Below, one piece after another: positions 9,674-54,263 of a DNA stretch of 64,000 nt; positions within the stretch are counted from its first letter, which is position 1; the number at the start of each line of letters is the position of its first letter. The translations under genes were made by a program, and so were the position numbers. The notes under the pieces are model-generated. The model ran no database searches. It had not been told where the DNA came from and saw only the letters and a program-made list of their open reading frames with translations. The stretch is from NCBI GenBank assembly GCA_963762215.1, contig CAVXKB010000013.1, positions 34,141-98,140 on the forward strand, written 5' to 3'. Source of the stretch: an uncultured Actinomycetota bacterium. Its GTDB lineage: Bacteria > Actinomycetota > Thermoleophilia > Gaiellales > Gaiellaceae.

Positions 9674-9746
9674 GGGGCGTTAGCTCAGCTGGGAGAGCGC
9701 CAGCTTTGCAAGCTGGAGGTCATCGGTTCGATCCCGATACGCTCCA
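9674..9746 (+). tRNA. tRNA-Ala: tRNA-Ala (anticodon UGC)
   Basis: Hand-folded 73-nt cloverleaf: acceptor GGGGCGT/ACGCTCC with the G3:U70 alanine identity pair, D arm GCTC-AGCTGGGA-GAGC, anticodon arm CCAGC-TTTGCAA-GCTGG, T arm ATCGG-TTCGATC-CCGAT. CCA is not encoded. Confidence 0.93.
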
Positions 9747-10443: not shown

Positions 10444-10605
10444 CGGAACTCCCTTTCGTCGGTTTCTATGTGGATTGGGCTCCGCGCGGACCGTCTGGAT
10501 CGCCCCCTCGGGACCGCGCCCACAGGTCGGGGAGTGTCGCAAAGGCCCGCGATGTTCGCAAGGGGCACCTCGCCCCACAAGGTTAAGCGGCTGGTCGAGG
10601 AGCCT

Positions 10606-14948: not shown

Positions 14949-14957
14949 GGTTTGCCC

Positions 14958-16019: not shown

Positions 16020-16091
16020 TCGGCGGCCGACATTCCGGCAACCGCTCTTCGATTTTCGGCCCGGATCCCCTATGATGGCGCTACGCGAATC

Positions 16092-22484: not shown

Positions 22485-22607
22485 CCGAACGCCGGCCGCG
22501 CGGTGCCCGCTCTTGTTGCCGAGTACCGGAATGGTTATGATCGCCGCATCGGAGGGATGCTCTCCAAGCCGGTGGGTAGTCCTGAATCCAAGGGAGGGAG
22601 TCGCAGG

Positions 22608-29263: not shown

Positions 29264-29350
29264 GAACCGCGCTTGAACTGCCAATACCGGCCTCCCGCGG
29301 TCACGCCTCGGGAGGCCGGTACGATTGACGCTCATGGGAGGTCAGAAGCA

Positions 29351-35218: not shown

Positions 35219-35220
35219 CC

Positions 35221-36804: not shown

Positions 36805-36973
36805 CGTCGCATTCTGAACGTCACCAACTCGATTGGTCCAAGGGAGCGATCGGGACTACCTTCCGAATTGTGTGTCCGCGGCAAGACCGGTTCGCTGTTC
36901 GCGTTCAAGTAAGCGCTGGCCGGCTCCGTTCGTCGTCGGCAGCTGCGCTCGCTATACGTCTCACTTGTGACCA

Positions 36974-37002
36974 TTGAAACTTGCCGATGTCGTGGGTAGT
37001 GT
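36974..37002 (+). promoter_or_regulatory. Candidate sigma-70-type promoter of iorA1B1 (TTGAAA-N17-TAGTGT), preceded by a conserved box
   Basis: -35 at 36974-36979 and -10 at 36997-37002. The 21-nt box ACGTCTCACTTGTGACCATTG (36956-36976) is identical upstream of the second iorA copy. Confidence 0.45.
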
Positions 37003-37093
37003 CCGCCCTGTCGCGGTTCGGGCTGGCTACTTGGCGCCGCGACGAGCTCCAGTGCGTTTCACCACCAATGAAACCTCAATGGAGGGTGGGCAT

Positions 37094-37606
37094 ATGGCTT
37101 CGAGCATCAAGATCAAGGTGAACGGGCTCACGCATGGCGTGACGGCCAGCCTCGACACTCCTCTCCTTTACGTCCTGCACAACGAGCTCCACCTGCATGG
37201 CCCGCGCTTCGGTTGCGGCCTAGCGCAGTGTGGCGCCTGCTCGGTGCTGCTCGACGGCAAGGAGATCCGCTCCTGCGTCACACCTGTGGCGGCAGTGAGC
37301 GGCAAGAACATCACGACCCTGGAAGGGCTGCCGGCATTGTGGGCGGCGCAGCGCGGTACCTCGGCTGCTGCCCCGGCTCTGCATCCGTTGCAGCAGGCGT
37401 GGATCGACGTTCAGGTGCCGCATTGCGGCTATTGCCAGAACGGCATGATGATTCAGGCTGCTGACCTGCTCGCGACGACGAAGAATCCGTCCGAGGACCA
37501 GATCCGCACGGCGATGAACGGGCATCTGTGCCGCTGCGGTACGTATCCGAGAATCCTGACCGCGATCCAGAAGGCCGCGGCAGTGATGGCAAAGGCAGGT
37601 GCGTGA
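37094..37606 (+). CDS. [2Fe-2S]-binding small subunit of an IorAB/aldehyde-oxidase-type molybdenum hydroxylase, copy 1
   Basis: GGAGGGTGGG RBS. Plant-type cluster GCGLAQCGACSV...C. Second cluster HCGYCQNG...CRCGTY. 170 aa. Confidence 0.9.
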   Translation: MASSIKIKVNGLTHGVTASLDTPLLYVLHNELHLHGPRFGCGLAQCGACSVLLDGKEIRSCVTPVAAVSGKNITTLEGLPALWAAQRGTSAAAPALHPLQQAWIDVQVPHCGYCQNGMMIQAADLLATTKNPSEDQIRTAMNGHLCRCGTYPRILTAIQKAAAVMAKAGA

Positions 37607-40020: not shown

Positions 40021-41129
40021 ATGAGGGTGCTGGCTGGGGGGACCTCCGGGTCCCCCCAAACCCTCATCTCCCTCGACTCCGATCAGGTCGCGCCCGAGCT
40101 TCTACCGGTCGAGGAGCTCGCCGACTGCGCACAGGCCGCGTTCGCGCACGACGGGAAGACAATCCTCTCCTACGGCTCCGGCGCCGGCTACGCAGCCTCT
40201 GCGGGAGCTGATCGGCGAGTGGTTCCGCGTCGATCCGTCGCGGGTGGTGCTGACACACGGGCAGCTTCACGGGCTCGCGACTGCTTGCCGGCCGCGTCGC
40301 GCGTGGACGCGGCGTGATGGTCGAGTACCCGATCCACGACCGGGCCGAGCGGGCGCTGCTCGCCGCAGGTGCGTCCCTGATCAGCACCCCGATCGGCGAG
40401 GACGGGATCGTCGTCGAGGAGCTCCAGGGCACGCTCGGCCAGTACGTGCGGCCGGCGATGGTCTACGTCGTTCCGAGCTTCCACAACCCGACCGGGTGGA
40501 CAACGCCGGGGGCCTCGCGCAAGCGTGTGGTCGACCTCGTGATCACTCAGAACCAGATCCAGACCGAGCAGATCCTGCTCGTCGAGGACGAGACATACGC
40601 GCTCACGCGCTTCGAGGGCGAGCGCATCCCCGCCATCTTCGACTACTCGGCCGGCCGGAGCGTGCACAGCTCTTCCTTCTCGGCCACGGTCGCTCCGGGG
40701 CTGCGTGTGGGCTATCTCATCCTGCCCGAGCCGCTCGCCGAGGAACTGACAGCCATCGCATCCGATAGCTACATCACCCCGGTGCTACTCGCACAGGCGA
40801 CCGTCTACGAGTTTCTCGCGCGCGGGGCGTTCGAGCCGCACCTGCTGCGGCTTCGGGACGGGCTGCGAGTTCGGCGTGACGCACTGCTCGCGGCACTCGC
40901 CAGGCACCTCCCCGATGCGACGTGGTCGGAGCCGGAGGGCGGTCTTTTCGTCTGGGTACAGCTTCCCGGCTCGCCCGACGGGCGCGAGGTGCTCAGCCGT
41001 GCGGAGGGGGTCGTCGCCGTCGACGGGACGCGCTTCGGCTCGGTCTCGAGCTCGCTGCGGCTCTCGTTCGGATACGCCGCCCCCGACGAGCTGGAAGCGG
41101 GAGTCGAAAGGCTCGCGGCGGCCCTGTAG
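40021..41129 (+). pseudogene. PLP-dependent aminotransferase (class I/II, MocR-C-terminal-like) with two frame breaks
   Basis: Frame 1 gives LISLDSDQVAPELLPVEELADCAQAAFAHDGKTILSYGSGAGY. Frame 2 gives PLRELIGEWFRVDPSRVVLTHGQLHGL. Frame 0 gives LLAGRVARGRGVMVEYPIHDRA...VVPSFHNPTGWT...SSSFSATVAPGLRVGYL. Breaks are near 40190-40199 and 40278-40281. Confidence 0.7.
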
Positions 41130-41894
41130 ATGGTGCGCAACGGCCTCATCGCCGGCATCGTCGCGGCTCTCGCTCTCGCCGCCGGCGCGCAAGGGGTGGT
41201 GTCGCAGACGATCTACGCCTACTTCGACGTCGACGGCGGCCTCCAGATCAGCTACGCCGACAGCTCGAAGGTCGGCAGCAATGTCCCACCGGGCACGTAC
41301 ACGATCAACCTGAACAACAACGGCGCCGACGACCTCGGCGTCGACCACATCTTCCACCTCTCCGGCCCCGGTGTCGACTACAAGGCCGCGAATGTCGACA
41401 CGACCGCGGTCTTCAGCGTCACGTTCCAGGCAGGCGCGACCTACCGCTTCTTCGACGACCTCAACCCGAAGATCAGCCAGACGATCCTCGCCACGACCGC
41501 TCCCTCGTCGACGCCAACCAATCCGCTGCCGCCCACGCCGGTCACCAGCTCGACAAAGGCGACTGCAGGCGGGATCGTGGGCTCACAGGCCGCGCCGCCC
41601 GCCCGACTTTCACGGGGAACGTTGACGGCGACCGTGAGCGCGTCCGGCAAGGTCACGCTCAGCTACCACGGTAAGGTCGTGAGCTCGCTCAAGTCCGGCC
41701 TCTACACCGTGTCCGTCACCGACTCGAGCAAGAACAGCGGCTTCGTCATCCAGCAGAGCCACAAGCTGGCGACCTCGGTCAGCACTGCGCCCTTCACCGG
41801 CAAGAAAAGCAAGAAACTCGATCTGACCAAGGGACAATGGTTCTTCTACCCGTCGTTCATCGGGCAGAAGACCTATTTCGTCGTCACGGGCTGA
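41130..41894 (+). CDS. Secreted tandem cupredoxin-like protein, family C (C1)
   Basis: Signal peptide. N-domain PPGTYTINLNNNGADDLGVDHIFHLSGPGVD...GATYRFFDD. Pro/Ser/Thr linker. C-domain GLYTVSVTDSSKNSGFVIQQ...KGQWFFYPSFIGQKTYFVVTG. Confidence 0.7.
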   Translation: MVRNGLIAGIVAALALAAGAQGVVSQTIYAYFDVDGGLQISYADSSKVGSNVPPGTYTINLNNNGADDLGVDHIFHLSGPGVDYKAANVDTTAVFSVTFQAGATYRFFDDLNPKISQTILATTAPSSTPTNPLPPTPVTSSTKATAGGIVGSQAAPPARLSRGTLTATVSASGKVTLSYHGKVVSSLKSGLYTVSVTDSSKNSGFVIQQSHKLATSVSTAPFTGKKSKKLDLTKGQWFFYPSFIGQKTYFVVTG

Positions 41895-41909: not shown

Positions 41910-42707
41910 TCAGCCGACGACGGGCACCGTGTAGGTGCTCTTCGAGGCGCTCGGACCGAACGACCAGCGGCCGGCGGTCAGGTTCAGGGTCACGGTGCGC
42001 TTACCCACGAACGCCATCCCGGTGACGCTCACCGTCGCGCGCTTCCCCTTCACCGCGAACCCGCTCGACGAGCTGCGGTCGACGACCGAGATCGCGTATC
42101 GGCCGGCATTCAGGCTCGAAACGCTCTTGCCCTTGAAGGCGATCCTGAGCGAGCCCGCGGGCGTCACGACCCCTGTGAGCGTGCCGCGGAAGGGAGGAAT
42201 CGCCGAGCCGACGACGTCTTGCGAGGTCGGCTTCGTGCCGCTCTTCGAGGACGTCGACGACGAGCCGGTCGGGGTCGCGGCCCCGACGACGTCGGACGAC
42301 GTCCGGAATGTGTAGACGATCGACTGGGCGCGATCGATGTGCCAGGTGTAGGTCGCGTTCGGCAGGAAGTACGTCGGCAGCGAGTGCGTGTCGACCTCAC
42401 CGCCGAGCATGTCGTCCTGGATGTCCACGCCCGGGCCGCTAAGCTCGAACAGCGGCAGGTTGATGCACTCGCCCGGGCCGTTCAAGAGCACCGAGTAGTA
42501 GCCACCCGGGATCACGGTCGGTGCGCCACTCGTCGTTCCGAGCGGCACGCCGTTGAGCGCCGCCGTGACGACGCCGTTGGTGTTGAAGGTAACGACGATC
42601 GTCTGGGTCGCGGCAAGCCGCGACTCGGCGGCCGGGGCGATCAATGCACCTGCGACGAGGGCGCCTGCAACAGCCAGCAGCAGGGCCCGCGAAACCCTTA
42701 TCTCCAC
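41910..42707 (-). CDS. Secreted tandem cupredoxin-like protein, family C (C2)
   Basis: ORF trimmed to GTG 42707 (VEIRVSRALLLAVAGALVAGALIAPAAES). FELSGPGVD...ATYTWHID. Ser/Thr linker. GRYAISVVDRSSSSGFAV...AGRWSFGPS. Confidence 0.65.
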   Translation of the reverse strand: MEIRVSRALLLAVAGALVAGALIAPAAESRLAATQTIVVTFNTNGVVTAALNGVPLGTTSGAPTVIPGGYYSVLLNGPGECINLPLFELSGPGVDIQDDMLGGEVDTHSLPTYFLPNATYTWHIDRAQSIVYTFRTSSDVVGAATPTGSSSTSSKSGTKPTSQDVVGSAIPPFRGTLTGVVTPAGSLRIAFKGKSVSSLNAGRYAISVVDRSSSSGFAVKGKRATVSVTGMAFVGKRTVTLNLTAGRWSFGPSASKSTYTVPVVG

Positions 42708-42883
42708 CTGCCGAGGATAGCGCAGCCGGAGCCTTGCTCGAACAATTCGACACCCCTTGCGCATATCGCGACGGCCCGATGCGGCTCTTCGAAACGACCA
42801 TAGAGGGATGTCGAATCCCCAAATTCGTAACAACTGGCCGAACTTGGCTTGTCTAAACGGCCGAAACGTCTCACTTGTGACCA

Positions 42884-42912
42884 TTGCAACGGGCCGATGC
42901 CGTTTGTACAGT
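42884..42912 (+). promoter_or_regulatory. Candidate promoter of iorA2B2 (TTGCAA-N17-TACAGT), preceded by the same conserved box
   Basis: -35 at 42884-42889 and -10 at 42907-42912. The box ACGTCTCACTTGTGACCATTG at 42866-42886 is identical to the copy at 36956-36976. Confidence 0.45.
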
Positions 42913-43003
42913 CCCCAAGGTCGTCTCGGAAGAGGCTCATCGCCCAGTGCCGCGGCGACCTGCAGTGCACTGCACAAGCAAGCACTCCAATGGAGGGTGG
43001 AAT

Positions 43004-43516
43004 ATGGCAAACAGCATCAAGATCAAGGTGAACGGGCTCACGCACGGCGTGACCGCGAGCCTCGATACTCCGCTCCTGTACGTTCTGCACAACGAGCTCC
43101 ATCTGCATGGCCCGCGGTTCGGTTGCGGTCTGGCGCAGTGTGGCGCATGCTCGGTGCTGCTGGACGGGAAGGAGATCCGCTCGTGCGTGACCCCGGTCGC
43201 GGCGGTTAGCGGGAAGAACATCACTACCTTGGAAGGGCTGCCGGCATTGTGGGCGGCGCAGCGCGGTACCTCGGCTGCTGCTCCGGCCTTGCATCCGTTG
43301 CAGCAGGCATGGATCGACGTTCAGGTGCCGCATTGCGGCTACTGCCAGAACGGGATGATGATCCAGGCCGCCGACCTGCTCGCGACGACGAAGAACCCGT
43401 CCGAGGATCAGATCCGCACGGCAATGAACGGGCACCTCTGCCGTTGCGGGACCTATCCGAGAATCCTGACCGCGATCCAGAAGGCCGCGGCCGTGATGGC
43501 AAAGGCGGGTGCATAA
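43004..43516 (+). CDS. [2Fe-2S]-binding small subunit, copy 2 (protein identical to copy 1 except residue 3)
   Basis: Same RBS context (AATGGAGGGTGG). Same 170-aa sequence (MANSIK vs MASSIK). About 45 synonymous codon differences by hand count. Confidence 0.9.
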   Translation: MANSIKIKVNGLTHGVTASLDTPLLYVLHNELHLHGPRFGCGLAQCGACSVLLDGKEIRSCVTPVAAVSGKNITTLEGLPALWAAQRGTSAAAPALHPLQQAWIDVQVPHCGYCQNGMMIQAADLLATTKNPSEDQIRTAMNGHLCRCGTYPRILTAIQKAAAVMAKAGA

Positions 43517-43518
43517 CG

Positions 43519-45955
43519 ATGACCGGTCTGATGCATGAAAAGGAGTTCTCACGCAAGAGCTTCGTGAAGGCAGGCGGCGCACTCATCGTCGGCTTCAGCG
43601 CTCTTGGCGCTCTTGGAGCCGGCAAGGCCCAGGGCGCGACCGGCAACACGCCGTTCGCGTTGCGCGGCCCCGGCGACTTCCTGCCCGACCTGCAACGCGG
43701 TCGACTCATGGATCGCGGTGCGGGCGGACAACTCGATCATCGTCACGCACGGCGAGACGGAGCTCGGTCACGGCACCCCGACCGGCATCCTCATGCTCGT
43801 CGCCGAAGAGATGAACACGAACATGGATCAGATGATCTATGCGCACCCGGAGACGTGGCTCAACGCGACCGGCGGCGGCGGCGGCTCAGGCGGTATCTCG
43901 AGCCGCTCGACGCAGACCCGTGCGGCGGCTGCATACGCGAAGCAGGTGCTGCTCGGCCTCGCCTCGACGAAGCTCGGCGTCCCCGTTGCGAACCTCTCGG
44001 TCTCGGGCGGTGTCGTCACCGGCGGATCCGGCAGCGTGAAGTACGGCGACCTGCTCGGCGGGAAGCTGTTCAACTTCGAGATGCCGCTCGTTGCAGCCAG
44101 CACCTCGACAACGGCGACACAGCTTATTCCCGGCACGGGCATCACGAAGCCCGTCAGCCAGTACAGCGCTCGTCGGCAAGTCGGTCCAGCGGATCGACAT
44201 CCCGGCGAAGGTCAACGGCACCTACACCTACATCCACAACGTCCGCATCCCGAACATGCTCCATGCTCGTTCGGTGCGGCCGCGTGGCGCAGGCGCCAAC
44301 ACCTCGGTGAACCATCAGCCGCAGAGCGTCGACGCGACCTCGATCGCCCATATCCCGGGCGCTCAGGTCGTTCAGATCGCCAACTTCCTCGCCGTCGTCG
44401 CTCCTCGCGAGTACGACGCGATCCAGGCTGCAGCGCAGCTCAAGGTCGTGTGGAAGAACGATCCGAAGTTCACGCCCTCCGGGAACTACTGGTCGTGGAT
44501 GCGCCAGGCCGGCGACACGAACACCGTCAACCCGGCCCGGTACACCGCGGATACGGGCGGCGTCCCCGCCGCGCTCGCCTCGGCAGCGCACAAGGTGACG
44601 GCGACCTACCGCTACCACTACAACAACTTCGTCCCGATCGGCCCGCACGCGGCTGTCGCGGACATCAAGTCGAATAGTGGAATCGTCTACGTGCAGGGTC
44701 AGTCACTGCAGGGTCTCCCCCCGAACTTCGCCACCATGCTCGGCTCGCAGTTCACGCCGGGCTCGGTGCGCGTGATCTGGTACGAGGGTGCGAGCTCCTT
44801 CGGCGGCGGCCAGCAGGGTGAGGCCGGCGAGCAGGCTGCGATCATCTCGCAGTCGATCGGCAAGCCGGTGCGCCTCCAGTGGATGCGCTGGGATCAGCAC
44901 GGCTGGGACAGCTACGGCCCGTCCCACCAGTACGACGTAACGATGGGCTGCGATGCGAACGGCAAGATCACGGTCGCCGACTGGACTGCTTACGGCCAGG
45001 CCGGCTCCACGATCGACACCACCAAGGAGCTCCTTGGTACCGCCGTTTGGCCCGCAGCACCGGCAGCAGGCGGCCCGACGCCGTCCGACACCGGTGTCTA
45101 CGGTGCGACCGGCTACGGCCCGTCGTACATCTACCAGCGCGGGTTCTGGCCAAGACGCAGCCGCTGTACGGCGGCTCGCTGAAGATCAGTGCCCTTCGTG
45201 CTCCGAACGCTCCGCAGTCCTACTTCGCCAGCGAGCAGGTCGTGGACGAGCTCGCACACGCCGCGGGGATGGATCCGGTCGCGTTCCGCAGGCTGAACAT
45301 CGACGGCACGAGCACGCTCGGAGCCCGTTGGCTGGCGGCGCTGGACGCCGCCACGATCGCTGCAGGCTGGAAGCCGAAGGTGGCTGCCTCGAACCTGCAG
45401 AGCGGGAACGTCGTCACCGGACGCGGCCTCGGTATCGGGACGTTCGCGTCCAGCCAGTCGGTCGTCGTCGCCGACATCCAGGTGACGAAGAGCACCGGCA
45501 AGATCCTCGTCAAGCACCTCTACATCTCCCAGAACAACGGGATCACGATCAGCCCGTCGCTCGTCACGAACCAGATGAGCGGCGCGGCGATCCAGGGTCT
45601 CTCGCGGGCGATGTGGGAGATGCCGACCTGGAACAAGGACCGGGTGACGAGCCTCGACTGGGTCTCGTATCCGATCCTGCGCTTCGTCGAGGCCCCGAAG
45701 GTGACGCTGATCAACGCGCACCCGGGCGAGTACGTCACGGTGCCTCCGGGAGATATGAAACCGGACGTGAGCCAGGGCAACACGAACGCGTTCAACCAGG
45801 GCTGGTTGCTGACCGGTTCCGGCGAGCCGCCGTCCACGGCGGTCGGCTCGGCAGTCGCGAACGCCTTCTTCGACGCCACGGGTGCCCGCATCCGCCAGGC
45901 GCCGATGAGGCCTCCGGTTGTCAAGGGCGCGCTCGAGGCGGCAGGCGTCAAGTAA
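43519..45955 (+). pseudogene. Molybdopterin-binding large subunit, copy 2, interrupted by three 1-nt frame breaks
   Basis: Homology to copy 1 can be followed through four frames: frame 1 MTGLMHEKEFSRKSFVKAGGALIVG...GDFLPDL; frame 2 NAVDSWIAVRADNS...PVSQY; frame 0 ALVGKSVQRIDIPAKV...GPSYIYQR; frame 2 VLAKTQPLYGGSLKISALRAPNAPQ...GSGEPPSTAVGSAVANAFFDATGARIRQAPM. Breaks are near 43693, 44163-44166 and 45137-45141. Confidence 0.75.
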
Positions 45956-46017: not shown

Positions 46018-46048
46018 CGAGACATATGGCAGGATGGGGGGTGTCCCG

Positions 46049-46891
46049 ATGGCTGTTCGTACCAGGCGTTATTCGGTTCTGATCGCTGTGTTTGCCTTCG
46101 CCGCGGTGGTATTGCCGAGCGGCTATGCAGCGCGGGCTGCGGGCGGCCTCCCGACGCTCTACGTGAGCTACAACATGAACTGCATGTTCGCCGTGACCGA
46201 CGACAGCGGCAAGTCGGTCACGACGATCCCGCCCGGCACCTACCAGGTTCAGATCACGACGCCGGTCGTCTTCGCCGACGTCGACCTGTCCGGGATCTAC
46301 GACATGACGGCGTGCCAGAGCTTCGTGCAGTTCCAGATCACCGGGCCCGGAGTCAACATCTCGACGACGCTGCAGGACGGGGACGAGGACTACGGCGTGT
46401 ACAGCGCGACGTTCAAGCCCGGCTCGACCTACACCGCATCCGATCTCAATCAGCCGTCGGTCGCAAAGCTCGTGTTCCAGACCGCCGCGTCGGGCTCTCC
46501 GGTGATCCCGACGAGCCCGGTCACGGGCAGCACGACGGGGAAGGGCTCGTCACAGTCGGACCTGATCGGCTCCAAGAGCAACACCGGTTCCTCGGCCGCG
46601 ACGCTCTCGCGGGGGACGCTGACGGCGTCCGTAAGCGCGGTGGGCAAGGTCACGCTGAGCTACCAGGGCCGGCTCGTGAGCTCGCTCAAGGCCGGTCTCT
46701 ACACGGTGTCCGTCACCGACTCGAGCAAGAAGAGCGGCTTCGTCATCCAGCAGAGCCACAAGCTGGCGACCTCGGTCAGCACGGCGCCGTTCACGGGCAA
46801 GAAAAGCAAGACCCTCGATTTGAGCAAGGGCCAATGGTTCTTCTACCCGTCATTCATCGGGCAGAAGACGTATTTCATCGTCACGGGATGA
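46049..46891 (+). CDS. Secreted tandem cupredoxin-like protein, family C (C3)
   Basis: Signal peptide MAVRTRRYSVLIAVFAFAAVVLPSGYAARA. FQITGPGVN...GSTYTASDLNQPS. Linker. The C-domain is nearly identical to C1 (GLYTVSVTDSSKKSGFVIQQSHKLATSVSTAPFTGKKSK...GQWFFYPSFIGQKTYFIVTG). Confidence 0.7.
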   Translation: MAVRTRRYSVLIAVFAFAAVVLPSGYAARAAGGLPTLYVSYNMNCMFAVTDDSGKSVTTIPPGTYQVQITTPVVFADVDLSGIYDMTACQSFVQFQITGPGVNISTTLQDGDEDYGVYSATFKPGSTYTASDLNQPSVAKLVFQTAASGSPVIPTSPVTGSTTGKGSSQSDLIGSKSNTGSSAATLSRGTLTASVSAVGKVTLSYQGRLVSSLKAGLYTVSVTDSSKKSGFVIQQSHKLATSVSTAPFTGKKSKTLDLSKGQWFFYPSFIGQKTYFIVTG

Positions 46892-46969: not shown

Positions 46970-47803
46970 GTGAGGTCGTTTCGCATTCGCAGTCTGTGGG
47001 GCCTGGTAGCAGCGCTGGCGGTAGCAGCGATCCTTGTGCCCATCGGAAGCTCGAAGACGGCGATGCATGCGGGGGTTCCGACGATCTACGTGCAGTACGC
47101 GATGAACTGCACGTTCTCGTTCGTCGACGACAGCGGCCACCCGATCACGTCGATCGCGCCCGGCACCTACGAGGTCGAGGTCTCGACGCCGATCATGTTC
47201 AAGCTCGTCGACACGCTCAATCAGGCTCCGGGCGACTTCACCGGCTGCAGGGGCTGGGTCCAGTTCCAGATGACGGGCCCCGGCGTCAACCTCTCGACCA
47301 CGCTCGACACGGGCTGCGACAGCAATTACCTGCTCCCGGAGACGACCTTCAAGGCCGGTCAGACCTACAACGCGGTCGACCTGAACCAGCCGAGCGTCGC
47401 GCACGCCACGCTCACCGTCCTGAACGCGGGGCAGCTGCCGAGCCCGACGAGCCCGTACGGCACCGGCACCGGCAAGGGCTCGACCTCGCAGGACATCGTC
47501 GGGTCGCTGCAGCCGAAGACGAAGGTCAAGGCGACGCTGACGGGCTCCCTGAGCTCCACCGGCGCCCTCGTCCTGAAGACCGGCGGGAAGACGATCTCGA
47601 CGCTCACGCCGGGTCGCTACCGGTTCGTGATCACCGACAAGGATCCGAAGGCAGGGTTCATGCTCGCCGGCGGCAAGGTGACCAAGACGCTGTCGGCCTC
47701 GGGCTTCGTCGGCAGGCACACGACGCTCGTTACGCTGACGGCAGGACACTGGACGTATTCCGCCAGTCCTGGCAAGGGATACTCCTTCACCGTCTCCGGC
47801 TGA
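46970..47803 (+). CDS. Secreted tandem cupredoxin-like protein, family C (C4)
   Basis: GTG start with signal peptide. FQMTGPGVN...GQTYNAVDLNQPS. Linker. GRYRFVITDKDPKAGFML...AGHWTYSASPGKGYSFTVSG. Confidence 0.7.
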   Translation: MRSFRIRSLWGLVAALAVAAILVPIGSSKTAMHAGVPTIYVQYAMNCTFSFVDDSGHPITSIAPGTYEVEVSTPIMFKLVDTLNQAPGDFTGCRGWVQFQMTGPGVNLSTTLDTGCDSNYLLPETTFKAGQTYNAVDLNQPSVAHATLTVLNAGQLPSPTSPYGTGTGKGSTSQDIVGSLQPKTKVKATLTGSLSSTGALVLKTGGKTISTLTPGRYRFVITDKDPKAGFMLAGGKVTKTLSASGFVGRHTTLVTLTAGHWTYSASPGKGYSFTVSG

Positions 47804-47870
47804 CGCGGCCGGTCTTCCCGGCCTCCGTCTGCCCTGGAACGGATCGGCTCGATTGGAGGTAAGGGAGAAA

Positions 47871-48047
47871 ATGGAGAACACCGAAGGGACAGTGCGTCGG
47901 GTGGTCCCGAAGACGCTCCGGAAGCACCTGTTCCTGACCGCGTTCGTCGTGCTCGCCCTGATCGGCGGCGCGATCCGCCTGCTCCCGACGAGCTTGGCTG
48001 CCGCCGCGCCGGGCTCCAGTAACTCGACGGCCTGCTCGGCGAAATGA
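47871..48047 (+). CDS. Small single-TM protein, first gene of the YedE-desulfurase operon
   Basis: GGAGGTAAGGGAGA precedes ATG 47871. MENTEGTVRRVVPKTLRKHLFLTAFVVLALIGGAIRLL...STACSAK. Its stop overlaps the next start (ATGA at 48044-48047). Confidence 0.5.
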   Translation: MENTEGTVRRVVPKTLRKHLFLTAFVVLALIGGAIRLLPTSLAAAAPGSSNSTACSAK

Positions 48048-48574
48048 CCGCCGGCACCGTGACACCGCCGCGCGCGAGCGTCGGCCCGAGCCTGCGCACC
48101 TGGTTCGGCCGGCTCCCCCGCTCGCCCATCTTCTACGGCATCGCCGTCGCCGTGATCGCCGGCGTCGCGGGCCAGTGGCTCTCGATCTCGCCGCCCGCCG
48201 CGTACGGCATCTGCTCGGCGTGCCACGGGCGCGATCTCGTCGACTGGACGCTGAACCACATCGAGGGCACCAAGCTGTACGTGACCGCAGCGGGTGCGAA
48301 CTGGCCCGTGCTGACCGTGATCGGGCTGGTGCTCGGCTCGTTCGCCGCCTCCAAGCGCAACGGCGAGTTCGCCTCGATCGACCTCGGTGGGAACGCGCGC
48401 CAGTTCGTGCTCGGCTTCATCGTCATGGGCGCCTGCCTGTTCGTCGGCGGCTGCCCGACCCGGATCATCATCCGCACCGGCTACGGCGACGTCGCTGCTG
48501 CACTGACCCTTGCCGGGATCGCCGGGGGCGTCGTGATCGCGACCCTCTCGATGCGGTGGGTGGCGCGGCGATGA
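48044..48574 (+). CDS. YeeE/YedE-family (sulfur/selenium transport-type) membrane protein, N-terminal-half homolog
   Basis: 176 aa, about 4 TM. Cys motifs AYGICSACHGRD and LFVGGCPTRIIIR are typical of the two re-entrant Cys loops of YeeE/YedE halves. Confidence 0.7.
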   Translation: MTAGTVTPPRASVGPSLRTWFGRLPRSPIFYGIAVAVIAGVAGQWLSISPPAAYGICSACHGRDLVDWTLNHIEGTKLYVTAAGANWPVLTVIGLVLGSFAASKRNGEFASIDLGGNARQFVLGFIVMGACLFVGGCPTRIIIRTGYGDVAAALTLAGIAGGVVIATLSMRWVARR

Positions 48575-49008
48575 TCGTCTCGATCTCCTCGCTCGGCGTC
48601 GGCCTGATCATCGGCTACCTCGGCCAGCGCTCCCGGATGTGCTCGATCGGCGGCCTCCGCGACTGGGTGCTCGTCCGCGACACGGCCCTCCTGAAAGGCG
48701 TAGCCGCGATGCTCGTTGCGTCGTGGGTCGTCTTCGGGGTCATCCGCCAGATCTCGGGCTCGAGCGCCGGACGCGGGCTGCTCGCCGCCGCGACCACGCC
48801 GAGCGGGCTCCGCGCGGTCGCCGCGATCCTCATCGGCGGCCTGCTGCTCGGCTTCTTCACGACGCTCTCGGGTGCCTGCCCGCTGCGCCAGCACGTGCTG
48901 GCCGGTCAGGGCCGAGTCGGTGCCTGGTCCTTCCTCGGCGGCTTCTACATCGCCGCGGTCGTCTACACGAGCTGGATCTCGCCGCACATCGGCGGGTGGA
49001 TCCTGTGA
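48571..49008 (+). CDS. YeeE/YedE-family membrane protein, C-terminal-half homolog
   Basis: ATGA overlap at 48571-48574. 145 aa. Matching Cys motifs GQRSRMCSIGGLRD and TLSGACPLRQHV. Confidence 0.7.
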   Translation: MIVSISSLGVGLIIGYLGQRSRMCSIGGLRDWVLVRDTALLKGVAAMLVASWVVFGVIRQISGSSAGRGLLAAATTPSGLRAVAAILIGGLLLGFFTTLSGACPLRQHVLAGQGRVGAWSFLGGFYIAAVVYTSWISPHIGGWIL

Positions 49009-50192
49009 GGGACGTGTACCTCGACAACGCCGCGACCTCGTGGCCGAAGCCGCCGGGCGTCCTCGAGGCGATCACCGACTTCTTCCAGCATGCGGGCGGC
49101 AACACCGGCCGGTCCGGGCACCGCCGCTCGATCGCCTCGTCGCGCGCCGTCAGCCTCGCCCGTGAGCGCCTTGCCGACCTGCTGGGCGCCGAGACCCCCG
49201 ACGACCTGGTCTTCACGAAGAACGCGACCGAGGCGCTGAACCTGGCGATCCTCGGCCTCGCGGCCGGCGTCACCCGGGCGGTGACGACCTCACTCGAGCA
49301 CAACTCGGTGATGCGCCCGCTTCGCGAGCTCGAGCGCCAGGGCCGCTGCTCGATCGACATCGTCCGCGCCGACGGGAACACCGGCGAGATCGACCTCGAC
49401 GAGTGGGCTGCACGGCTCGACGGGCCCGACGCGTGCCTGGCGATCGCGACGCACGCATCGAACGTGACCGGCGTGTTGCTCCCTGTCGGCGAGCTTGCAG
49501 CGATCGCCGCCGAGCGGAATCGCCCCTTCGTCGTCGACGCCTCGCAGAGCGCGGGGCACATCCCGCTCGACGTTACGGCGCTCGGCGCCTCGGCGGTGGC
49601 GATGCCCGGGCACAAGGGCCTCCTTGGGCCGTCCGGCACCGGGCTGCTCCACCTCTCGCCGGGCATCGACATCGAGCCGCTGATCCGCGGCGGCACGGGC
49701 AGCCAGTCCGAGCTCGAGGTGCAGCCGGACTTCGCACCGGACAAGTACGAGAGCGGGACTCTGAACGCGATCGGGATCGTCGGTCTCGGGGCCGCGGCGG
49801 AGTATCTGGCCGAGGTCGGCGTCGCGAGCGTCCAGGCCCGGCTCACGGAGCTCAGCCGCCGCTTCGTCGACGGGCTTTCGGACATTCCCGGCGTCACGAT
49901 CTACGGCCCCGCCGACCCCGGCGACAGCGTCGGGATCGTCTCCCTGAACCTCGAGGCCATCCCCTGCGCGACCGTCGCTCGTCTGATCGACGACGAATGG
50001 GGCGTGATGACGCGCGCCGGGCTGCACTGCTCTCCTGCTGCGCACAGGAGCCTCGGGACGGCCCCGGACGGGACACTGCGCTTCTCCTGGGGCTTCGACA
50101 CGAGCGACGAGGACATCGACATCGCGGTCGAGGCACTCCGCACGGTCGCCGACCGGAACCGGAACGCGACGCCCGCGGGGAGCGTCGCTTGA
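49005..50192 (+). CDS. Class V PLP-dependent cysteine desulfurase / selenocysteine lyase-like enzyme
   Basis: GTGA overlap at 49005-49008. VYLDNAATSWPKP start. THASNVTG. DASQSAGH. PLP-Lys in AMPGHKGLLGPSGTG. Active-site Cys in TRAGLHCSPAAH. Confidence 0.85.
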   Translation: MRDVYLDNAATSWPKPPGVLEAITDFFQHAGGNTGRSGHRRSIASSRAVSLARERLADLLGAETPDDLVFTKNATEALNLAILGLAAGVTRAVTTSLEHNSVMRPLRELERQGRCSIDIVRADGNTGEIDLDEWAARLDGPDACLAIATHASNVTGVLLPVGELAAIAAERNRPFVVDASQSAGHIPLDVTALGASAVAMPGHKGLLGPSGTGLLHLSPGIDIEPLIRGGTGSQSELEVQPDFAPDKYESGTLNAIGIVGLGAAAEYLAEVGVASVQARLTELSRRFVDGLSDIPGVTIYGPADPGDSVGIVSLNLEAIPCATVARLIDDEWGVMTRAGLHCSPAAHRSLGTAPDGTLRFSWGFDTSDEDIDIAVEALRTVADRNRNATPAGSVA

Positions 50193-50449
50193 TCTGGGGT
50201 GGTGTGGTGTCCTTCTTCGCATCGGAGCACGCAATGAGGTCGGAGCGCCTGATGCAGAGGGCCGGCATCCAGGCGAGGCTCGTTCCCGGGCCGCGGGAGG
50301 TCAGCCCGAACTGCGGCGTCGCGGTTGCGTTCCGGTGGGAGGACGAGCCCGAGGTCGAGCAGTTGCTGAAGGACGCCAAGATCCGGTACGAGGCAGTCCA
50401 CCATTTCGATCTAGACGACGGCCTGACGGCCGAGGAGGCGGCATCGTGA
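50189..50449 (+). CDS. DUF3343-family small protein (putative S/Se carrier-like)
   Basis: TTG 50189 overlaps the desulfurase stop (TTGA); alternative GTG starts at 50204/50207. VVSFFASEHAMRSERLMQRAGIQARLVPGPREVSPNCGVAVAF matches the DUF3343 pattern with its conserved Cys-Gly. Confidence 0.7.
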   Translation: MIWGGVVSFFASEHAMRSERLMQRAGIQARLVPGPREVSPNCGVAVAFRWEDEPEVEQLLKDAKIRYEAVHHFDLDDGLTAEEAAS

Positions 50450-51405
50450 ACCGTAAGCGCGTAACAATTCTCGTGATCGTCCTGGTGGTGATCGGAGCGA
50501 TCGTGGGGATCGGAGCCATCTCGCGCTCGACCGGCTCGGACACCACCGCGAGTGCGAGCACCGGTGCTGTAACAGGCGCCGCCGTGCCGTCGTCGCTCTG
50601 GTACTGGACGATGGCCGTCTCCCCCACGGACCCGAACGCGCTCGTGGTCGGAACCGCGAACGGCCTCTACCGCTCGACCGACGGCGGCAAGACGTGGACG
50701 CCGACCGGTCCGAAGAACTTCAACGCGACGAGCGTCGTGCAGGTCGGAAGCTCGCTCTACGCCGGCGGCGCGCACGCGACCCCGACGACGAGCCCGGTCG
50801 TCAAGACCGGCGCGACCAGGGCCGCCACGAGCGGCGCCGCCGTCTTCGCCGTCAGCACCGACGGCGGCCAGACCTGGAAGGTCCAGCACCCCGCCGGCCT
50901 TCCGAACGCGGCCGTGCAGGCGTTCGCGGTCGACCCGGCCAACACCCAGAACTTCTATGCGGTCCTCACGAGCGGCAAGGTGTACCTCTCGTCGAACGGC
51001 GCGAAGTCGTTCAAGCTCTCGTCGCCGAAGATCGGGATCCCGCCCTGGGCGGTCGCGATCATGAAGGGCGGCCAGTTCGCCGGCGGCGACATGGACACGG
51101 GCCCGTATCTCAGCTCGAACGGCACGACCTGGAAGAAGACGACCTACACCGACTCGCGCGGAACCAAGATGGTCATGGAGTACGCCGTCGACCCGACCGA
51201 CACGACGAAGGTGCTGATGACGAGCTTCGGGATCGAGATCTCGACGGACAGCGGCAAGACCTGGCACACGGCACTCAAGTCGTCGACGATGTTCGGGCCG
51301 ATCGCCTACTCGGCATCCAAGCCGGACGTTGCCTACGCGATCGGGTTCGACAGCTCGATCTGGCGCTCCGACGACGGCGGCAAGAGCTGGACGCAGGTGA
51401 AGTGA
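50446..51405 (+). CDS. Membrane-anchored BNR/Asp-box repeat beta-propeller protein
   Basis: GTGA overlap at 50446-50449. Anchor VTILVIVLVVIGAIVGIGAI. Asp-boxes STDGGKTW, STDGGQTW, STDSGKTW and SDDGGKSW. Confidence 0.75.
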   Translation: MNRKRVTILVIVLVVIGAIVGIGAISRSTGSDTTASASTGAVTGAAVPSSLWYWTMAVSPTDPNALVVGTANGLYRSTDGGKTWTPTGPKNFNATSVVQVGSSLYAGGAHATPTTSPVVKTGATRAATSGAAVFAVSTDGGQTWKVQHPAGLPNAAVQAFAVDPANTQNFYAVLTSGKVYLSSNGAKSFKLSSPKIGIPPWAVAIMKGGQFAGGDMDTGPYLSSNGTTWKKTTYTDSRGTKMVMEYAVDPTDTTKVLMTSFGIEISTDSGKTWHTALKSSTMFGPIAYSASKPDVAYAIGFDSSIWRSDDGGKSWTQVK

Positions 51406-51481: not shown

Positions 51482-52114
51482 ATGGAGCTTCGAGCTCTGA
51501 AGGTTCGCTTGGTCGCGATCATGGTCGTGACCGGCTTCTGTGTGGCGACGGCGGTCGCCACGGCAGCACTCGTGTCGGTGCGGAGCTCCCAGAACGGCTC
51601 CCTCGGCGCGATCCTGGTCAGCTCGAGCGGCCGGACGCTCTACCACCTGTCGTCCGAGAAAGGCACGATCAAGTGCACCGGCACGTGCGCGGCCGAGTGG
51701 CCGCCGCTCCTGATCGGAGCGGGCGCGAAGCCGATCGCGCAGCCTGGCGTGACCGCGAAGCTGCTCGGGACGATCAAGCGCCCCGACGGCAAGACCCAGG
51801 TCACCTACCGCGGCCTGGCTCTCTACACGTACGCCGGCGACAAGAAGGCCGGCGACGTGAAGGGGCAGGGCGAAGGCGGCATCTGGCATGCGATCGCACC
51901 TTCCGGGGTGATCATCACCAAGGCTGTCAGCACGTCGACGTCGACCGGGACCACCTCGGGCTCCAACACGAGCGCAGGCTCCGGGTCGGGATCGGGCTCC
52001 GGCAGCGGCTCGAGTGGAAGCTCCGGCTCGAACTCCGGCGGCAGCAGCGGCGGCGGCACCTCTACGCTGCCGGCCGGCTGCGACACGAACCCCGGCGGCT
52101 ACGGCTGCATGTAG
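51482..52114 (+). CDS. Secreted protein with Yx(FWY)xxD repeat (COG4315-type) and Gly/Ser-rich Cys-terminated tail
   Basis: GRTLYHLSSEKGTIKCTGTCAAEWPPL and GLALYTYAGDKKAGDVKGQG are the two family repeats. The tail is SGSGSGSGSGSSGSSGSNSGGSSGGG...PAGCDTNPGGYGCM. Confidence 0.7.
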   Translation: MELRALKVRLVAIMVVTGFCVATAVATAALVSVRSSQNGSLGAILVSSSGRTLYHLSSEKGTIKCTGTCAAEWPPLLIGAGAKPIAQPGVTAKLLGTIKRPDGKTQVTYRGLALYTYAGDKKAGDVKGQGEGGIWHAIAPSGVIITKAVSTSTSTGTTSGSNTSAGSGSGSGSGSGSSGSSGSNSGGSSGGGTSTLPAGCDTNPGGYGCM

Positions 52115-52180: not shown

Positions 52181-53389
52181 CTAGGCGATGCGCTTCCCGG
52201 GGCAGCCGGTGTGGACCGCGGCGTCGCACGTGCGCCCATTCACCATCGTCACCGAGTTCGAGCCGGCGTTCGTGACGTAGACCGTGTTCGTCACCTCGTC
52301 GACGGCGACGCGGCGCGGGCTGATGCCGACCGGTGCGACCGCGGCAGCCTGGCTGCAGCCGGACCGCACGGCCGCGTTGCAGGTCGATCCGTCGATCACG
52401 CTGATCGTGTTCGCGGCGGTGTTCGCGACGTAGATGGTGTCGGTGACCGCGTTGACCGCGATCCCCCGCGCTCCGACGCCGGCGGCAATGCGGGAGGGCG
52501 GTACCCGGCAGCCGCTCCTCACCTTGCCGTTGCAGGTGCGCCCGTCGATCACCGAGACATCGTTCGAGGCCTGGCCGGTGACGTAGATCGTGTCCGTGCG
52601 CGCGTTCACGGCGATGCCGCCGGGGAAGCTGCCGACGCTCACGGTCGCCGGCCGGCGCCCGCAGCCCGTGACGATCTCGGCATTGCAGGCGCGCGAATCG
52701 ATCACCGCGACGGTCGGCGCACCGAGATCGGCGACGTACACCGTGCCGTCGGTGACCGCGACGGCGAACGGCGCCGGCCCGACCGGGATCGAGGCCCGCA
52801 CGTGGTGGCAGCCGCTCCTCACCGTGGCGTTGCAGTGCCGGCCGTCGATCACCGAGACGGTGTTCGAGACACTGTTCGCGACGTAGATCGTGTGCGTCTT
52901 CTCGTCGACCGCGAGGAACTGCGGGTTCACACCGACGCGAACGCTCGCCGGCTCGACGTGGCAGCCGGAGGTATTCGCGGCATTGCAGTGCCGGGCATCG
53001 ACGACCGCGACCGTCCCGGATGCGTTCGCCACGTACACCGTGTCGCTCGTGCGGTCGACGGCGATCCCGATCGGGTCGACGCCCGCGGTGACCGCGGTCA
53101 CATGTCGGTTGCAGCCATGCGCGTTGCCGCCATTGCAGCTCTTGCCGTCGATCAGCGAGAGCGTGCCGGTGGTGCCGTTTCCGACGTAGATGGTGTCGGT
53201 GGCCGTGTCGAGGGCGATCCCGGTCGGGAAGCCGCCGACCTGGATCTCGGGATGCGACAGGGCGGCACGGGTCGCACCCGGGGCGGCCGGCAGCCCGAGA
53301 ACGAGCGCCGCGACCCCGAGCAGCCCGGCGATCGCCCGCGATCGCGCGCGGTGCCGGGTGATCGGGTGAGTGATTGGGCGTGCGCTCAT
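52181..53389 (-). CDS. Secreted YVTN-type seven-bladed beta-propeller protein with one Cys pair per blade
   Basis: Signal peptide. Seven ~43-aa repeats of the form P-x-GIAVD-x-x-TDTIYVAN-x-x-x-NTVSVIDGR-x-CNA-x-x-x-SGC. Confidence 0.8.
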   Translation of the reverse strand: MSARPITHPITRHRARSRAIAGLLGVAALVLGLPAAPGATRAALSHPEIQVGGFPTGIALDTATDTIYVGNGTTGTLSLIDGKSCNGGNAHGCNRHVTAVTAGVDPIGIAVDRTSDTVYVANASGTVAVVDARHCNAANTSGCHVEPASVRVGVNPQFLAVDEKTHTIYVANSVSNTVSVIDGRHCNATVRSGCHHVRASIPVGPAPFAVAVTDGTVYVADLGAPTVAVIDSRACNAEIVTGCGRRPATVSVGSFPGGIAVNARTDTIYVTGQASNDVSVIDGRTCNGKVRSGCRVPPSRIAAGVGARGIAVNAVTDTIYVANTAANTISVIDGSTCNAAVRSGCSQAAAVAPVGISPRRVAVDEVTNTVYVTNAGSNSVTMVNGRTCDAAVHTGCPGKRIA

Positions 53390-53423: not shown

Positions 53424-54263
53424 TCAGGAAACCGTGAAGACGTGCTTGCCCGACGGCGTGATGAACGTCCACTTGCCGGTGGTCAGCTTCAGGTTGACCG
53501 TGTGCTTGCCGACGAACGAGGCGCTCGTGATCGTGACGGTGGCGTGCGTCGGCTTCTGAACCGCGAAGCCGGTCTTCTTGCTGCCGTCGAGCACCGAGAT
53601 CTTGTACGTCCCGGTCTTGAGCGCCGTGACGGTCTTCCCCTTGAAGGTGAAGGTCACGCCGCCGCCGGAAGTGATCGTCGCGGCCAGAGTCCCCGCAGTC
53701 TTGATGCCGGTGCTGAGGCCGCCGCCGTTCGAGGTCGTTCCGCCGCCACCGTTCGAGGTCGTCCCGCCGCCGCCGCTCGAGGTTGTCCCGCCGCCGCCGC
53801 TCGAGGTGCCTCCGCCGCCGGCTGCCGTCCCGGACGTCTGGAACGTGCCCCACATGAAGTCGGGGTGATTGTCGCACTGGAACCTGTAGCTCTGTCCCGG
53901 CTGGAGCGTCACGGACCAGGTCGGTGTCGACACACCACCGATGTCCGTCGACTGGTCGACCCCGGGCCCGGAAAGGTGGAAGTTGTGCTCGGTCGCGTCG
54001 TCGAGCACGCTGATCGAGTACGTGCCGGGCGGGATGACGAGCGGCACTGCCGTCTGGCCGCCGACCGCGGAGCCGTCGGCGAACTTGAGCCCGATCGAGT
54101 CGTCCTCGTGGACGAACGCGTTCATGTTCTGCGAGACAGCCGCATGCCCCCGACCGGCGATCACCAGGCCTGCCGTCAATCCGAGAACGACGACGCTCGC
54201 AAACAAGGCTACAAGGCTGTTTCCCGGGATTCTGCGCTGGATCGACGACATATTTGCTGACAC
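53424..54263 (-). CDS. Secreted tandem cupredoxin-like protein, family C (C5), with intact type-1 copper ligand set
   Basis: Anchor/signal LVALFASVVVLGLTAGLVIAG. TEHNFHLSGPGVD...SYRFQCDNHPDFMWGTF (Cys-x2-His-x4-Met at 53853-53876). Gly-rich repeat linker. C-domain GTYKISVLDGSKKTGFAV...TGKWTFITPSGKHVFTVS. Confidence 0.75.
   Translation of the reverse strand: MSANMSSIQRRIPGNSLVALFASVVVLGLTAGLVIAGRGHAAVSQNMNAFVHEDDSIGLKFADGSAVGGQTAVPLVIPPGTYSISVLDDATEHNFHLSGPGVDQSTDIGGVSTPTWSVTLQPGQSYRFQCDNHPDFMWGTFQTSGTAAGGGGTSSGGGGTTSSGGGGTTSNGGGGTTSNGGGLSTGIKTAGTLAATITSGGGVTFTFKGKTVTALKTGTYKISVLDGSKKTGFAVQKPTHATVTITSASFVGKHTVNLKLTTGKWTFITPSGKHVFTVS
53718..53813 (-). repeat. Four tandem 24-nt units inside the C5 linker
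   Basis: On the + strand: GCCGCCGCCGTTCGAGGTCGTTCC / GCCGCCACCGTTCGAGGTCGTCCC / GCCGCCGCCGCTCGAGGTTGTCCC / GCCGCCGCCGCTCGAGGTGCCTCC. These encode GGGGT(T/S)S(S/N) units on the - strand. Confidence 0.85.

Follow-up and report, generated by a model that had tools for sequence, protein, structure and literature searches.

The 64-kb window analyzed here (the whole stretch of DNA considered, 64,000 nt, to which all coordinates refer) originates from an uncultured actinobacterium of the Gaiellaceae and hosts an operon for a putative chalcogen relay. Six plus-strand open reading frames (ORFs), named g1 to g6 in operon order, occupy positions 47871-51405 and are linked by five successive 4-nt start/stop overlaps, i.e., ATGA at 48044-48047 (g1/g2), ATGA at 48571-48574 (g2/g3), GTGA at 49005-49008 (g3/g4), TTGA at 50189-50192 (g4/g5), and GTGA at 50446-50449 (g5/g6), all exactly where an earlier reading of the sequence (in the following, the original prediction) had placed them. 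They encode a small single-transmembrane (TM) membrane protein (g1, 47871-48047, 58 aa from its ATG), the N- and C-terminal halves of a split YedE-type channel (g2, 48044-48574, 176 aa; g3, 48571-49008, 145 aa), a class V pyridoxal phosphate (PLP) enzyme (g4, 49005-50192, 395 aa), a DUF3343/Se_S_carrier protein (g5, 50189-50449, 86 aa), and a TM-anchored BNR/Asp-box beta-propeller (g6, 50446-51405, 319 aa). The motifs quoted in the original prediction were all found (GICSACHG and GGCPTR in g2, RMCSIGG and GACPLR in g3, PGHKG and RAGLHCSP in g4, SPNCGVAV in g5), and profile hidden Markov model searches upheld its four family assignments (YedE, class V, DUF3343, and BNR). GC content at third codon positions reaches 0.86-0.94 in the six frames, compared with an overall GC content of 0.67. 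NTGA overlaps are commonplace in the same genome, with iorA1 and iorB1 also overlapping in GTGA; they are a sign of a tight operon, not an oddity in themselves. Since the 4-nt overlaps are found again in orthologous loci (60-98% identity), those of g1 to g6 go beyond chance and define one translationally coupled operon.

The closest genomic relatives are metagenome-assembled genomes (MAGs) of uncultured Actinomycetota, one of them labelled Gaiellaceae, with g4 identities from 98 down to 72%. No identical copy of g4 was found in the assembly collection. The set of ~28 Gaiellaceae-like loci consists of nineteen metagenome contigs and nine further loci taken from collections of genomes and assemblies. 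The order g1 to g6 is kept in every one of them offering enough sequence, so that the synteny expected by the original prediction is found intact. The 4-nt overlap is retained at the g1/g2 junction in 13/13 cases, at g2/g3 in 24/25, at g3/g4 in 20/25, at g4/g5 in 17/18, and at g5/g6 in 11/14, the exceptions lying mostly on contigs with evident frameshift errors.

The assignment of g2 and g3 as two half-size YedE genes is carried by the TIGR04112 (seleno_YedE) and PF04143 (Sulf_transp) models. While g2 matches TIGR04112 positions 5-133 (59.1 bits), g3 matches positions 186-305 (67.8 bits), in the order of the fused form, which identifies them as N- and C-terminal halves of a YedE-type protein. 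Both exceed the PF04143 gathering cutoff of 27 bits (36.4 and 49.1 bits). Instead of the single, internally duplicated polypeptide of ~10 TM segments that TIGR04112 describes, the operon holds two genes of 176 and 145 codons. Each half carries two Cys loops with conserved cysteines (Cys57 and Cys137 in g2; Cys24 and Cys103 in g3), and an alignment showed these four columns to be conserved in split and fused YedE alike, as expected for TIGR04112 members. The half-size state is not restricted to the window: the best 120 homologues of g2 are all half-size (176-191 aa), and an exhaustive search with g3 among 1.84 billion protein representatives returned only 276 relatives, the nearest of them nearly all 100-225 aa long. 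Full-length relatives (350-400 aa) appear at 35-43% identity, with g3 aligning to their C-terminal half, and pass TIGR04112 with 218-457 bits. One seemingly fused, 301-aa YedE from a close relative (P0243) was rejected as an artifact of a frameshift-ridden contig (L049), in which the g2 part lies in other frames. Further half-size pairs were found in a Dehalococcoidia MAG contig (L046) and in an archaeal-looking contig of 40% GC (L047), the halves overlapping by 4 nt in the latter next to a divergent DUF3343 fusion gene. A YedE split into two neighboring genes has been described in archaea, each half carrying 4-5 TM segments as in g2 and g3 (Lin et al. 2015, PMC5322559); thus, the original prediction was mistaken in regarding the split transporter as undescribed. 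After 2015, nothing beyond a review was found on the split form in the literature searched.

A function in ordinary sulfur assimilation, with transport of thiosulfate or a related ion as in TsuA-TsuB and with desulfurase and DUF3343 as generic neighbors, was also considered. It would agree with the PF04143 scores of both halves, with the match of a profile of g3 relatives to the structure of the thiosulfate transporter YeeE (6LEO, E = 2e-7), and with a sulfate/thiosulfate-binding protein gene 11 kb downstream of the operon (62508-63560, plus strand; TIGR00971 178 bits, cutoff 155). The TsuA(YeeE)-TsuB(YeeD) system (6LEO, 8K1R) shares the PF04143 superfamily, the internally duplicated fold, and the pore cysteines with g2/g3, and in both systems a small Cys-bearing protein of the cytoplasm accompanies the channel as acceptor of the transported species. 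However, g2 and g3 score only 13-27 bits on the TsuA/YeeE models NF041049 and NF052577, with cutoffs of 645 or 400 bits, and no TusA/SirA-like domain, the hallmark of the TsuB/YeeD partner, was detected by Pfam in the six operon proteins. The partner here is DUF3343 rather than a TusA-fold protein, the channel consists of two polypeptides, and a PLP enzyme and outer-face proteins are included; tsuAB loci do not show the tight, widely conserved coupling to TIGR01977 and DUF3343 genes and to an anchored outer protein. We therefore regard a plain thiosulfate transporter as very unlikely.

In respect to the two cytoplasmic proteins, g4 matches TIGR01977 (am_tr_V_EF2568) over the full model length with 395.1 bits (cutoff 377), securing its class V assignment, and PF00266 with 267 bits; its nearest solved structures are SufS-type. 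On the SclA model NF040779 it attains 308 bits, below the cutoff of 525. It carries the PLP-lysine motif PGHKG and a group-II-type catalytic Cys loop, RAGLHCS. Judged by these features, g4 is a member of the EF2568/SclA-type family and a predicted cysteine desulfurase or selenocysteine lyase. TIGR01977 has been listed as selenocysteine lyase, co-profiling with selD and the genes of selenium-dependent molybdenum hydroxylases (SDMH) (Haft and Self 2008, PMC2276186), and EF2568/SclA of Enterococcus faecalis was characterized as selenocysteine lyase (bioRxiv 10.1101/2020.02.07.939272). The DUF3343 protein g5 (PF11823, 67.8 bits, cutoff 25) contains a single cysteine, Cys42, within an invariant SPNCGVAV; the stretch LVPGPREVSPNCGVAVAF is invariant in the window copy and eight orthologues.

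The operon is framed by two less familiar proteins. The start of g1 is most likely the ATG at 47871, yielding 58 aa, because AGGGAG precedes it by 5 nt; an alternative TTG at 47853 would give 64 aa. In the peptide, which belongs to no Pfam or NCBIfam family, a basic N-terminus leads into a single TM helix (~residues 20-38), followed by a linker of Ala, Ser, and Gly and by the C-terminal STAC-SAK, placing Cys55 at position -4. All 19 of 19 orthologues end in TAC-x-x-x and overlap g2 by ATGA despite an overall identity of only 36-50%, and they likewise keep the basic N-terminus, the single TM helix, and the linker. The architecture and terminal motif being kept in orthologues, g1 is taken as a real protein with a tethered Cys; the 58-aa single-TM leader peptide of the original prediction is thereby established as conserved and as bearing an invariant Cys motif. 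Five K/R versus two D/E residues precede the helix, and this charge distribution suggests an N-in/C-out orientation with the tail facing outwards. Another translationally coupled protein was observed upstream of the split YedE of the Dehalococcoidia contig (L046, 6931-7518): it comprises 195 aa with one TM segment and two CxxC motifs (CPGCHG and CTNCDG) and appears to be a lineage-specific Cys-bearing partner analogous, not homologous, to g1.

For g6, Pfam returned BNR, Sortilin-Vps10, and PSII_BNR matches, and an AlphaFold2 model (mean per-residue confidence, pLDDT, 86.5) consists of a helix (residues 3-23), a disordered segment (20-43), and a beta-propeller, in line with the membrane-anchored Asp-box propeller proposed initially. 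The protein has 873 homologues. Its best matches in the Protein Data Bank by Foldseek are Ycf48 structures (TM-score 0.47-0.49, 18-19% identity); with 31 bits on PF14870 (cutoff 27) and 26.9 bits on NF010237 (cutoff 326), the comparison supports a likeness in fold class, not orthology. Like Ycf48/HCF136 (2XBG, 5OJ3) and the BNR "putative glycosyl hydrolase" propellers (3B7F), g6 is a BNR/Asp-box propeller of similar size predicted to lie on the outer face of the membrane. Ycf48 attaches to one member of the pseudo-symmetric D1/D2 pair of homologous membrane proteins, and this would make an appealing analogy for the g2/g3 pair; unlike Ycf48, g6 has its own TM anchor and no photosystem context. 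Among 29 sequences with 51-98% identity to g6, the methionines M216, M244, M258, and M282 are invariant, as are D217, E245, and Y246.

Extension of the analysis beyond the Gaiellaceae was achieved by a metagenome scan with g3-like halves (six-sequence alignment), which revealed ~60 distant loci with g3 identities of 34-50% and GC contents of 0.27-0.71. Adjacent g2-like and g3-like genes are present in all of them except L099, L101, L110, and L066, in which the contig starts too near the match. In ~40 of the 60, the split YedE has as direct neighbor a g4 homologue (35-57% identity), a g5 homologue, or both, usually in the order g4-g5-g2-g3 and in three loci as g2-g3-g4-g5. Neither g1 nor g6 nor an adjacent IorAB was found in any of the ~60 loci. 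Instead, 14 of them (L068, L070, L076, L081, L085, L089-L091, L096, L102, L103, L105, L106, and L125) carry a GerMN (PF10646) gene immediately upstream of the g4 homologue, in some cases coupled to it by a 4-nt or 1-nt overlap. The resulting cassette reads TM-anchored GerMN, TIGR01977-like enzyme, DUF3343, YedE-N, YedE-C, and no description of it was found in the literature searched. With its basic N-terminus and single TM helix, the GerMN protein has the same predicted topology as g6. A ~320-aa gene upstream of distant cassettes had been considered as SelD by its size; this was ruled out by Pfam, which assigns GerMN domains.

Combining these data, we consider it probable that the operon encodes a relay moving a chalcogen (S or Se) across the cytoplasmic membrane and represents the Gaiellaceae-lineage form of a widespread cassette. 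According to this proposal, g4 would release S or Se from cysteine or selenocysteine, binding it as a persulfide or perselenide, and Cys42 of g5 would carry it between g4 and the cytoplasmic opening of the g2/g3 heterodimer, whose four pore cysteines would move the S or Se species through the membrane. Outside, the g6 propeller and the g1 tail, flexible and tipped with Cys, would capture the species or hand it over. In unrelated lineages, the position of g1 and g6 is taken by a GerMN protein, likewise TM-anchored, which makes a partner tethered at the outer face seem integral to the system. The homology to TsuA/YeeE and YedE/FdhT favors import as the presumable direction of the channel; outward delivery is also compatible with a cytoplasmic S-mobilizing enzyme and the repeated adjacency to extracytoplasmic Mo/Cu protein and maturation genes.

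Several points weigh against the relay. All functional statements rest on comparative genomics, and the topologies of g1 and g6 come only from charge distribution and hydrophobicity. The propeller g6 is devoid of Cys, and its likeness to Ycf48 does not go beyond the general fold (TM-score ~0.48); it could assist the assembly of the two channel halves instead of handling a substrate. Neither g2 nor g3 singly reaches the TIGR04112 cutoff of 200 bits, and an artificial g2+g3 concatenation attains 115 bits, due to which their substrate may differ from that of a bona fide YedE. For DUF3343, no functional study was found in the literature searched, and an importer has no evident need for a PLP desulfurase. 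A promoter and terminator scan identified none flanking the operon, with site counts equal to shuffle expectation, rendering the scan uninformative.

The same three core families, namely YedE-type channel, TIGR01977-type class V enzyme, and DUF3343/PF11823, make up a selenium neighborhood described earlier, which additionally involves YedF (Lin et al. 2015, PMC5322559). The model of these authors, if transferred to the operon, would be one of selenium uptake and recycling: a Se species would enter through g2/g3, g4 would serve as selenocysteine lyase, and g5 would hand Se on to SelD, for use in selenoproteins, selenouridine, or Se cofactors. In favor of it, g2 and g3 score 59 and 68 bits on the selenium-type YedE model versus 13-27 bits on the TsuA models, their nearest full-length relatives pass TIGR04112, g4 passes the TIGR01977 model called selenocysteine lyase and co-profiling with selD (PMC2276186), and several genomes have YedE, selenocysteine lyase, and DUF3343 clustered with selD (PMC5322559). 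In contrast to that neighborhood, the operon is bacterial (Actinomycetota), has no YedF/SirA-like gene or selD nearby, contains halves below the TIGR04112 cutoff, and adds g1 and g6, translationally coupled to the core. A Pfam survey of ~60 ORFs of the window detected no selD, selA, selB, yqeB, yqeC, xdhC, or mocA, and the selD, yqeB/yqeC, and xdhC-like genes that the original prediction had named as worth finding are consequently all missing from this stretch. Similarly, the AIRS domains of SelD are not among the 25 commonest Pfam families of 141 ORFs neighboring distant cassettes. The failure of g2/g3 at the TIGR04112 cutoff and of g4 at the SclA model (308 versus 525 bits) also speaks against a dedicated selenium function, and DUF3343 is not Se-specific (PMC5322559). 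No literature linking Gaiella with selenophosphate was found. Taken together, selenium recycling in this sense is unlikely. Selenium use is, moreover, uncommon in aerobic soil actinobacteria, as which the present lineage appears.

As an alternative to selenium, the neighboring genes direct attention to molybdenum enzymes. Upstream of the operon, two IorAB-type Mo-hydroxylase pairs are encoded on the plus strand: iorA1 and iorB1 (36971-40017; Fer2_2, MoCoBD_1, and MoCoBD_2 matches) and iorA2 and iorB2 (42881-45955), with iorA2, the 2Fe-2S subunit (Fer2_2 match), ending at 43516 and iorB2 being the Mo subunit. The iorB1 product starts with SRKSFLK followed by a hydrophobic stretch, resembling a twin-arginine translocation (Tat) signal but having RK for RR and no Pfam TAT_signal score. 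The Tat export assumed in the original prediction therefore holds as far as a Tat-like motif on IorB is concerned, not as a canonical or profile-supported signal. The iorB2 gene (43513-45955) is read in three frames, with single-base indels at 43693, 44168, and 45140 relative to a 93%-identical intact copy in a close relative (L001). As L001 in turn has an indel/frameshift in iorA, long-read assembly error is the likely cause of the breaks, with pseudogenes as the alternative. Between the two pairs, a class I/II aminotransferase gene (40314-41129) was noticed to have its N-terminal part in another frame (region 40021-41129).

Of the 11 close relatives whose flanks extend to 4 kb or more, 9 have an iorB gene within 8 kb of the operon. 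One of these is the rearranged L049, in which iorAB is located downstream instead of upstream; in L004 and L044, all six genes are present with no iorAB within 9-10 kb. Linkage to iorAB, as expected in the original prediction, is hence frequent but not strict. An array of independent, non-Gaiellaceae-like lineage was found in two distant loci, in which same-strand genes (L121 1692-11764, L122 2833-13272) combine a Mo hydroxylase of the xanthine oxidase (XO) family with the split YedE. They are arranged as 2Fe-2S subunit, Mo large subunit with hammerhead domain, FAD subunit, three unknown genes, split YedE, polyferredoxin, DUF3343-DUF8182 fusion, and NnrD-like Carb_kinase; the small (2Fe-2S) subunit scores 20.8 bits on the PF10518 Tat-signal model, below its cutoff of 22.7.

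On the basis of this neighborhood, the original prediction had interpreted the operon as a dedicated chalcogen-delivery module for the adjacent IorAB-type enzymes, which would mean that the terminal sulfido (or seleno) ligand reaches their molybdenum cofactor (Moco) inside the cytoplasm, prior to export. Dedicated NifS-like Moco sulfuration has precedents in NifS4/XdhC of Rhodobacter capsulatus and in the eukaryotic Moco sulfurases. The latter are represented by the hxB/ma-l reference cited in PMC2276186. The linkage in 9 of 11 relatives, rearranged L049 included, and the independent L121/L122 array of XO-family hydroxylase, split YedE, and DUF3343 fusion agree with such a role. On the other hand, the counts from close relatives are not independent of one another, iorAB is missing near the complete operon of L004 and L044, and the ~40 distant core cassettes have no IorAB neighbor; a connection to Mo enzymes is suggested, whereas a general dedication of the module to IorAB is not supported. 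No gene for an XdhC-like insertion chaperone was detected in the window (no XdhC_CoxI or XdhC_C match), and Rfam showed no riboswitch, whether for Moco or of another type, ahead of the operon or of iorAB. The sole gathering-level Rfam match in the window is one tRNA gene (9674-9746, plus strand). Furthermore, a transmembrane channel and two outward-facing proteins are unnecessary for sulfuration from cytoplasmic cysteine. A comparison with SDMH maturation loci (PMC2276186), such as E. faecalis EF2563-EF2570 with selD, sclA (EF2568), yqeB/yqeC, and xanthine dehydrogenase (XDH), shows the same placement of a TIGR01977 enzyme beside XO-family genes. Unlike those loci, the window lacks selD, yqeB (TIGR03309), yqeC (TIGR03172), and ygfJ/mocA, i.e., the SDMH signature of selD, yqeB, and yqeC does not accompany its Mo hydroxylases, which are two-subunit IorAB-type enzymes with a Tat-like signal and not cytoplasmic XDH. 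Overall, cytoplasmic ligand supply to IorAB appears quite unlikely as the function of the operon. For the transmembrane relay, in turn, the tie to the neighboring Mo enzymes is suggestive, and the IorAB hydroxylases, probably exported, are its most plausible clients in the Gaiellaceae lineage.

A census of Pfam families among the 141 ORFs neighboring distant cassettes showed DsbD_TM fusions, cupredoxin domains, SCO1, and PCuAC to recur, and tatC directly follows the g5 homologue in L129. Propeller-cupredoxin proteins of 540-680 aa are also found there; an identity with NosZ was ruled out (57 bits on the L-NosZ model, cutoff 700). These neighbors give reason to weigh a strictly outward relay, in which g4/g5 mobilize sulfane S (or Se), the split YedE exports it, and anchored outer proteins, i.e., g1 Cys tail and g6 propeller here and GerMN elsewhere, deliver it to exported metalloenzymes for the installation or repair of the Mo=S ligand or for Cu-S sites. 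Such a process would account for an operon coupling a cytoplasmic S-mobilizing enzyme to a channel and outward-facing proteins, and for neighbors that are consistently genes of extracytoplasmic redox metalloproteins or their maturation, namely IorAB with its Tat-like motif, the XO-family enzyme with a weak Tat match, TatC, SCO1, PCuAC, the DsbD_TM fusion, and the propeller-cupredoxin proteins. Nevertheless, the characterized family members (TsuA/YeeE, and YedE/FdhT by genetics) act in uptake, and the YeeE structures 6LEO and 8K1R support this role. Tat substrates normally receive their cofactors before export, an extracytoplasmic sulfur acceptor for Mo=S repair is not known, and the neighbor census was made without a background control. 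Accordingly, we assign strict outward delivery only a small probability; if true, it would be the first extracytoplasmic cofactor-sulfuration pathway.

The remaining surroundings of the operon are dominated by secreted proteins. Directly upstream of g1, "sec47k" (46970-47803, plus strand) encodes a secreted two-domain beta-sandwich protein without Pfam or NCBIfam family, and its homologue in this position is the most constant neighbor of the operon (18 of 20 loci with enough flank). Paralogues equally without family are encoded at 41130-41894 (plus), 41910-42644 (minus), 46034-46891 (plus), and 53424-54263 (minus). The five proteins (~250-285 aa) consist of two beta-sandwich domains connected by a Ser/Thr/Gly linker and are always located beside iorAB or the operon. 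A model of the sec47k type (pLDDT 62) gave weak matches to two-domain cupredoxin folds, with no Cu ligands conserved; the sec proteins could be partners or electron acceptors of IorAB. Starting 76 nt after g6, a Lipoprotein_15/SCO0930-like secreted protein (51482-52114, plus strand) matches PF03640 with 80.6 bits and SCO0930_lipo with 99 bits (cutoff 275); the Lipoprotein_15 gene follows g6 in the window, L001, L003, L008, L042, L049, L052, L057, and L058, and is thus a frequent, not universal neighbor. Next to it, on the minus strand, a 402-aa NHL/YVTN-type (lactonase-like) propeller (52181-53389) with a C-N-x(5-6)-G-C loop in each of its approximately seven blades is kept near the operon in L001, L002, L004, and L042. 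Its homology to the distant propeller-cupredoxin proteins was considered and dismissed, the pairwise comparison not being significant (E = 0.048). On the minus strand just upstream of iorA1 (33162-36855) lie the genes of a two-domain permease and of an ABC transporter binding protein (SBP_bac_11), with weak similarity to PhnS, ModA, and SfuA. Exported redox proteins are numerous in the upstream half of the window, which comprises three pyrroloquinoline quinone (PQQ)-type beta-propeller dehydrogenase genes (15981-18884, plus; 18873-20579, minus; 22485-24590, plus), two plastocyanin/azurin-type cupredoxin genes (10018-10605, minus; 29264-30061, plus), and a MoxR-DUF58-VWA cluster (12341-16103, minus).

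As to what is new, the literature already contains the three core families with their linkage as well as the split channel, the clustering of YedE, selenocysteine lyase, DUF3343, and YedF genes having been described by Lin et al. (2015, PMC5322559). The distribution of the split form in bacteria and the widespread unit of 4-5 genes with an anchored outer-face partner appear to be new, as do g1 and g6, which are specific to the Gaiellaceae, and the lack of selD in the close vicinity. In the literature searched, neither g1 nor g6 was found described as a partner of the YedE/class V/DUF3343 core; in this respect, the novelty originally claimed for the leader peptide and the BNR protein appears to hold, in contrast to that of the split transporter.

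YedE, DUF3343, and TIGR01977 have been linked to Se/S trafficking by comparative genomics since 2008-2015, and an established joint mechanism for the three was not found in the literature searched. The operon and its relatives show them as a tightly coupled unit far beyond the selD-linked cases, with a channel in the two-gene form in bacteria as well as archaea. This unit regularly recruits a membrane-anchored extracytoplasmic partner, whose fold depends on the lineage, being either GerMN or the BNR propeller combined with a Cys-tailed peptide. A vague "chaperone" idea is thereby turned into a testable trans-membrane Cys relay involving Cys55 of g1, Cys57 and Cys137 of g2, Cys24 and Cys103 of g3, and Cys42 of g5. 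Its recurrence beside probably exported Mo and Cu redox enzymes raises the question of the source and upkeep of their labile sulfur ligands. Because Gaiellaceae-like bacteria supplied many of the soil-metagenome homologues, this function may be ecologically widespread.

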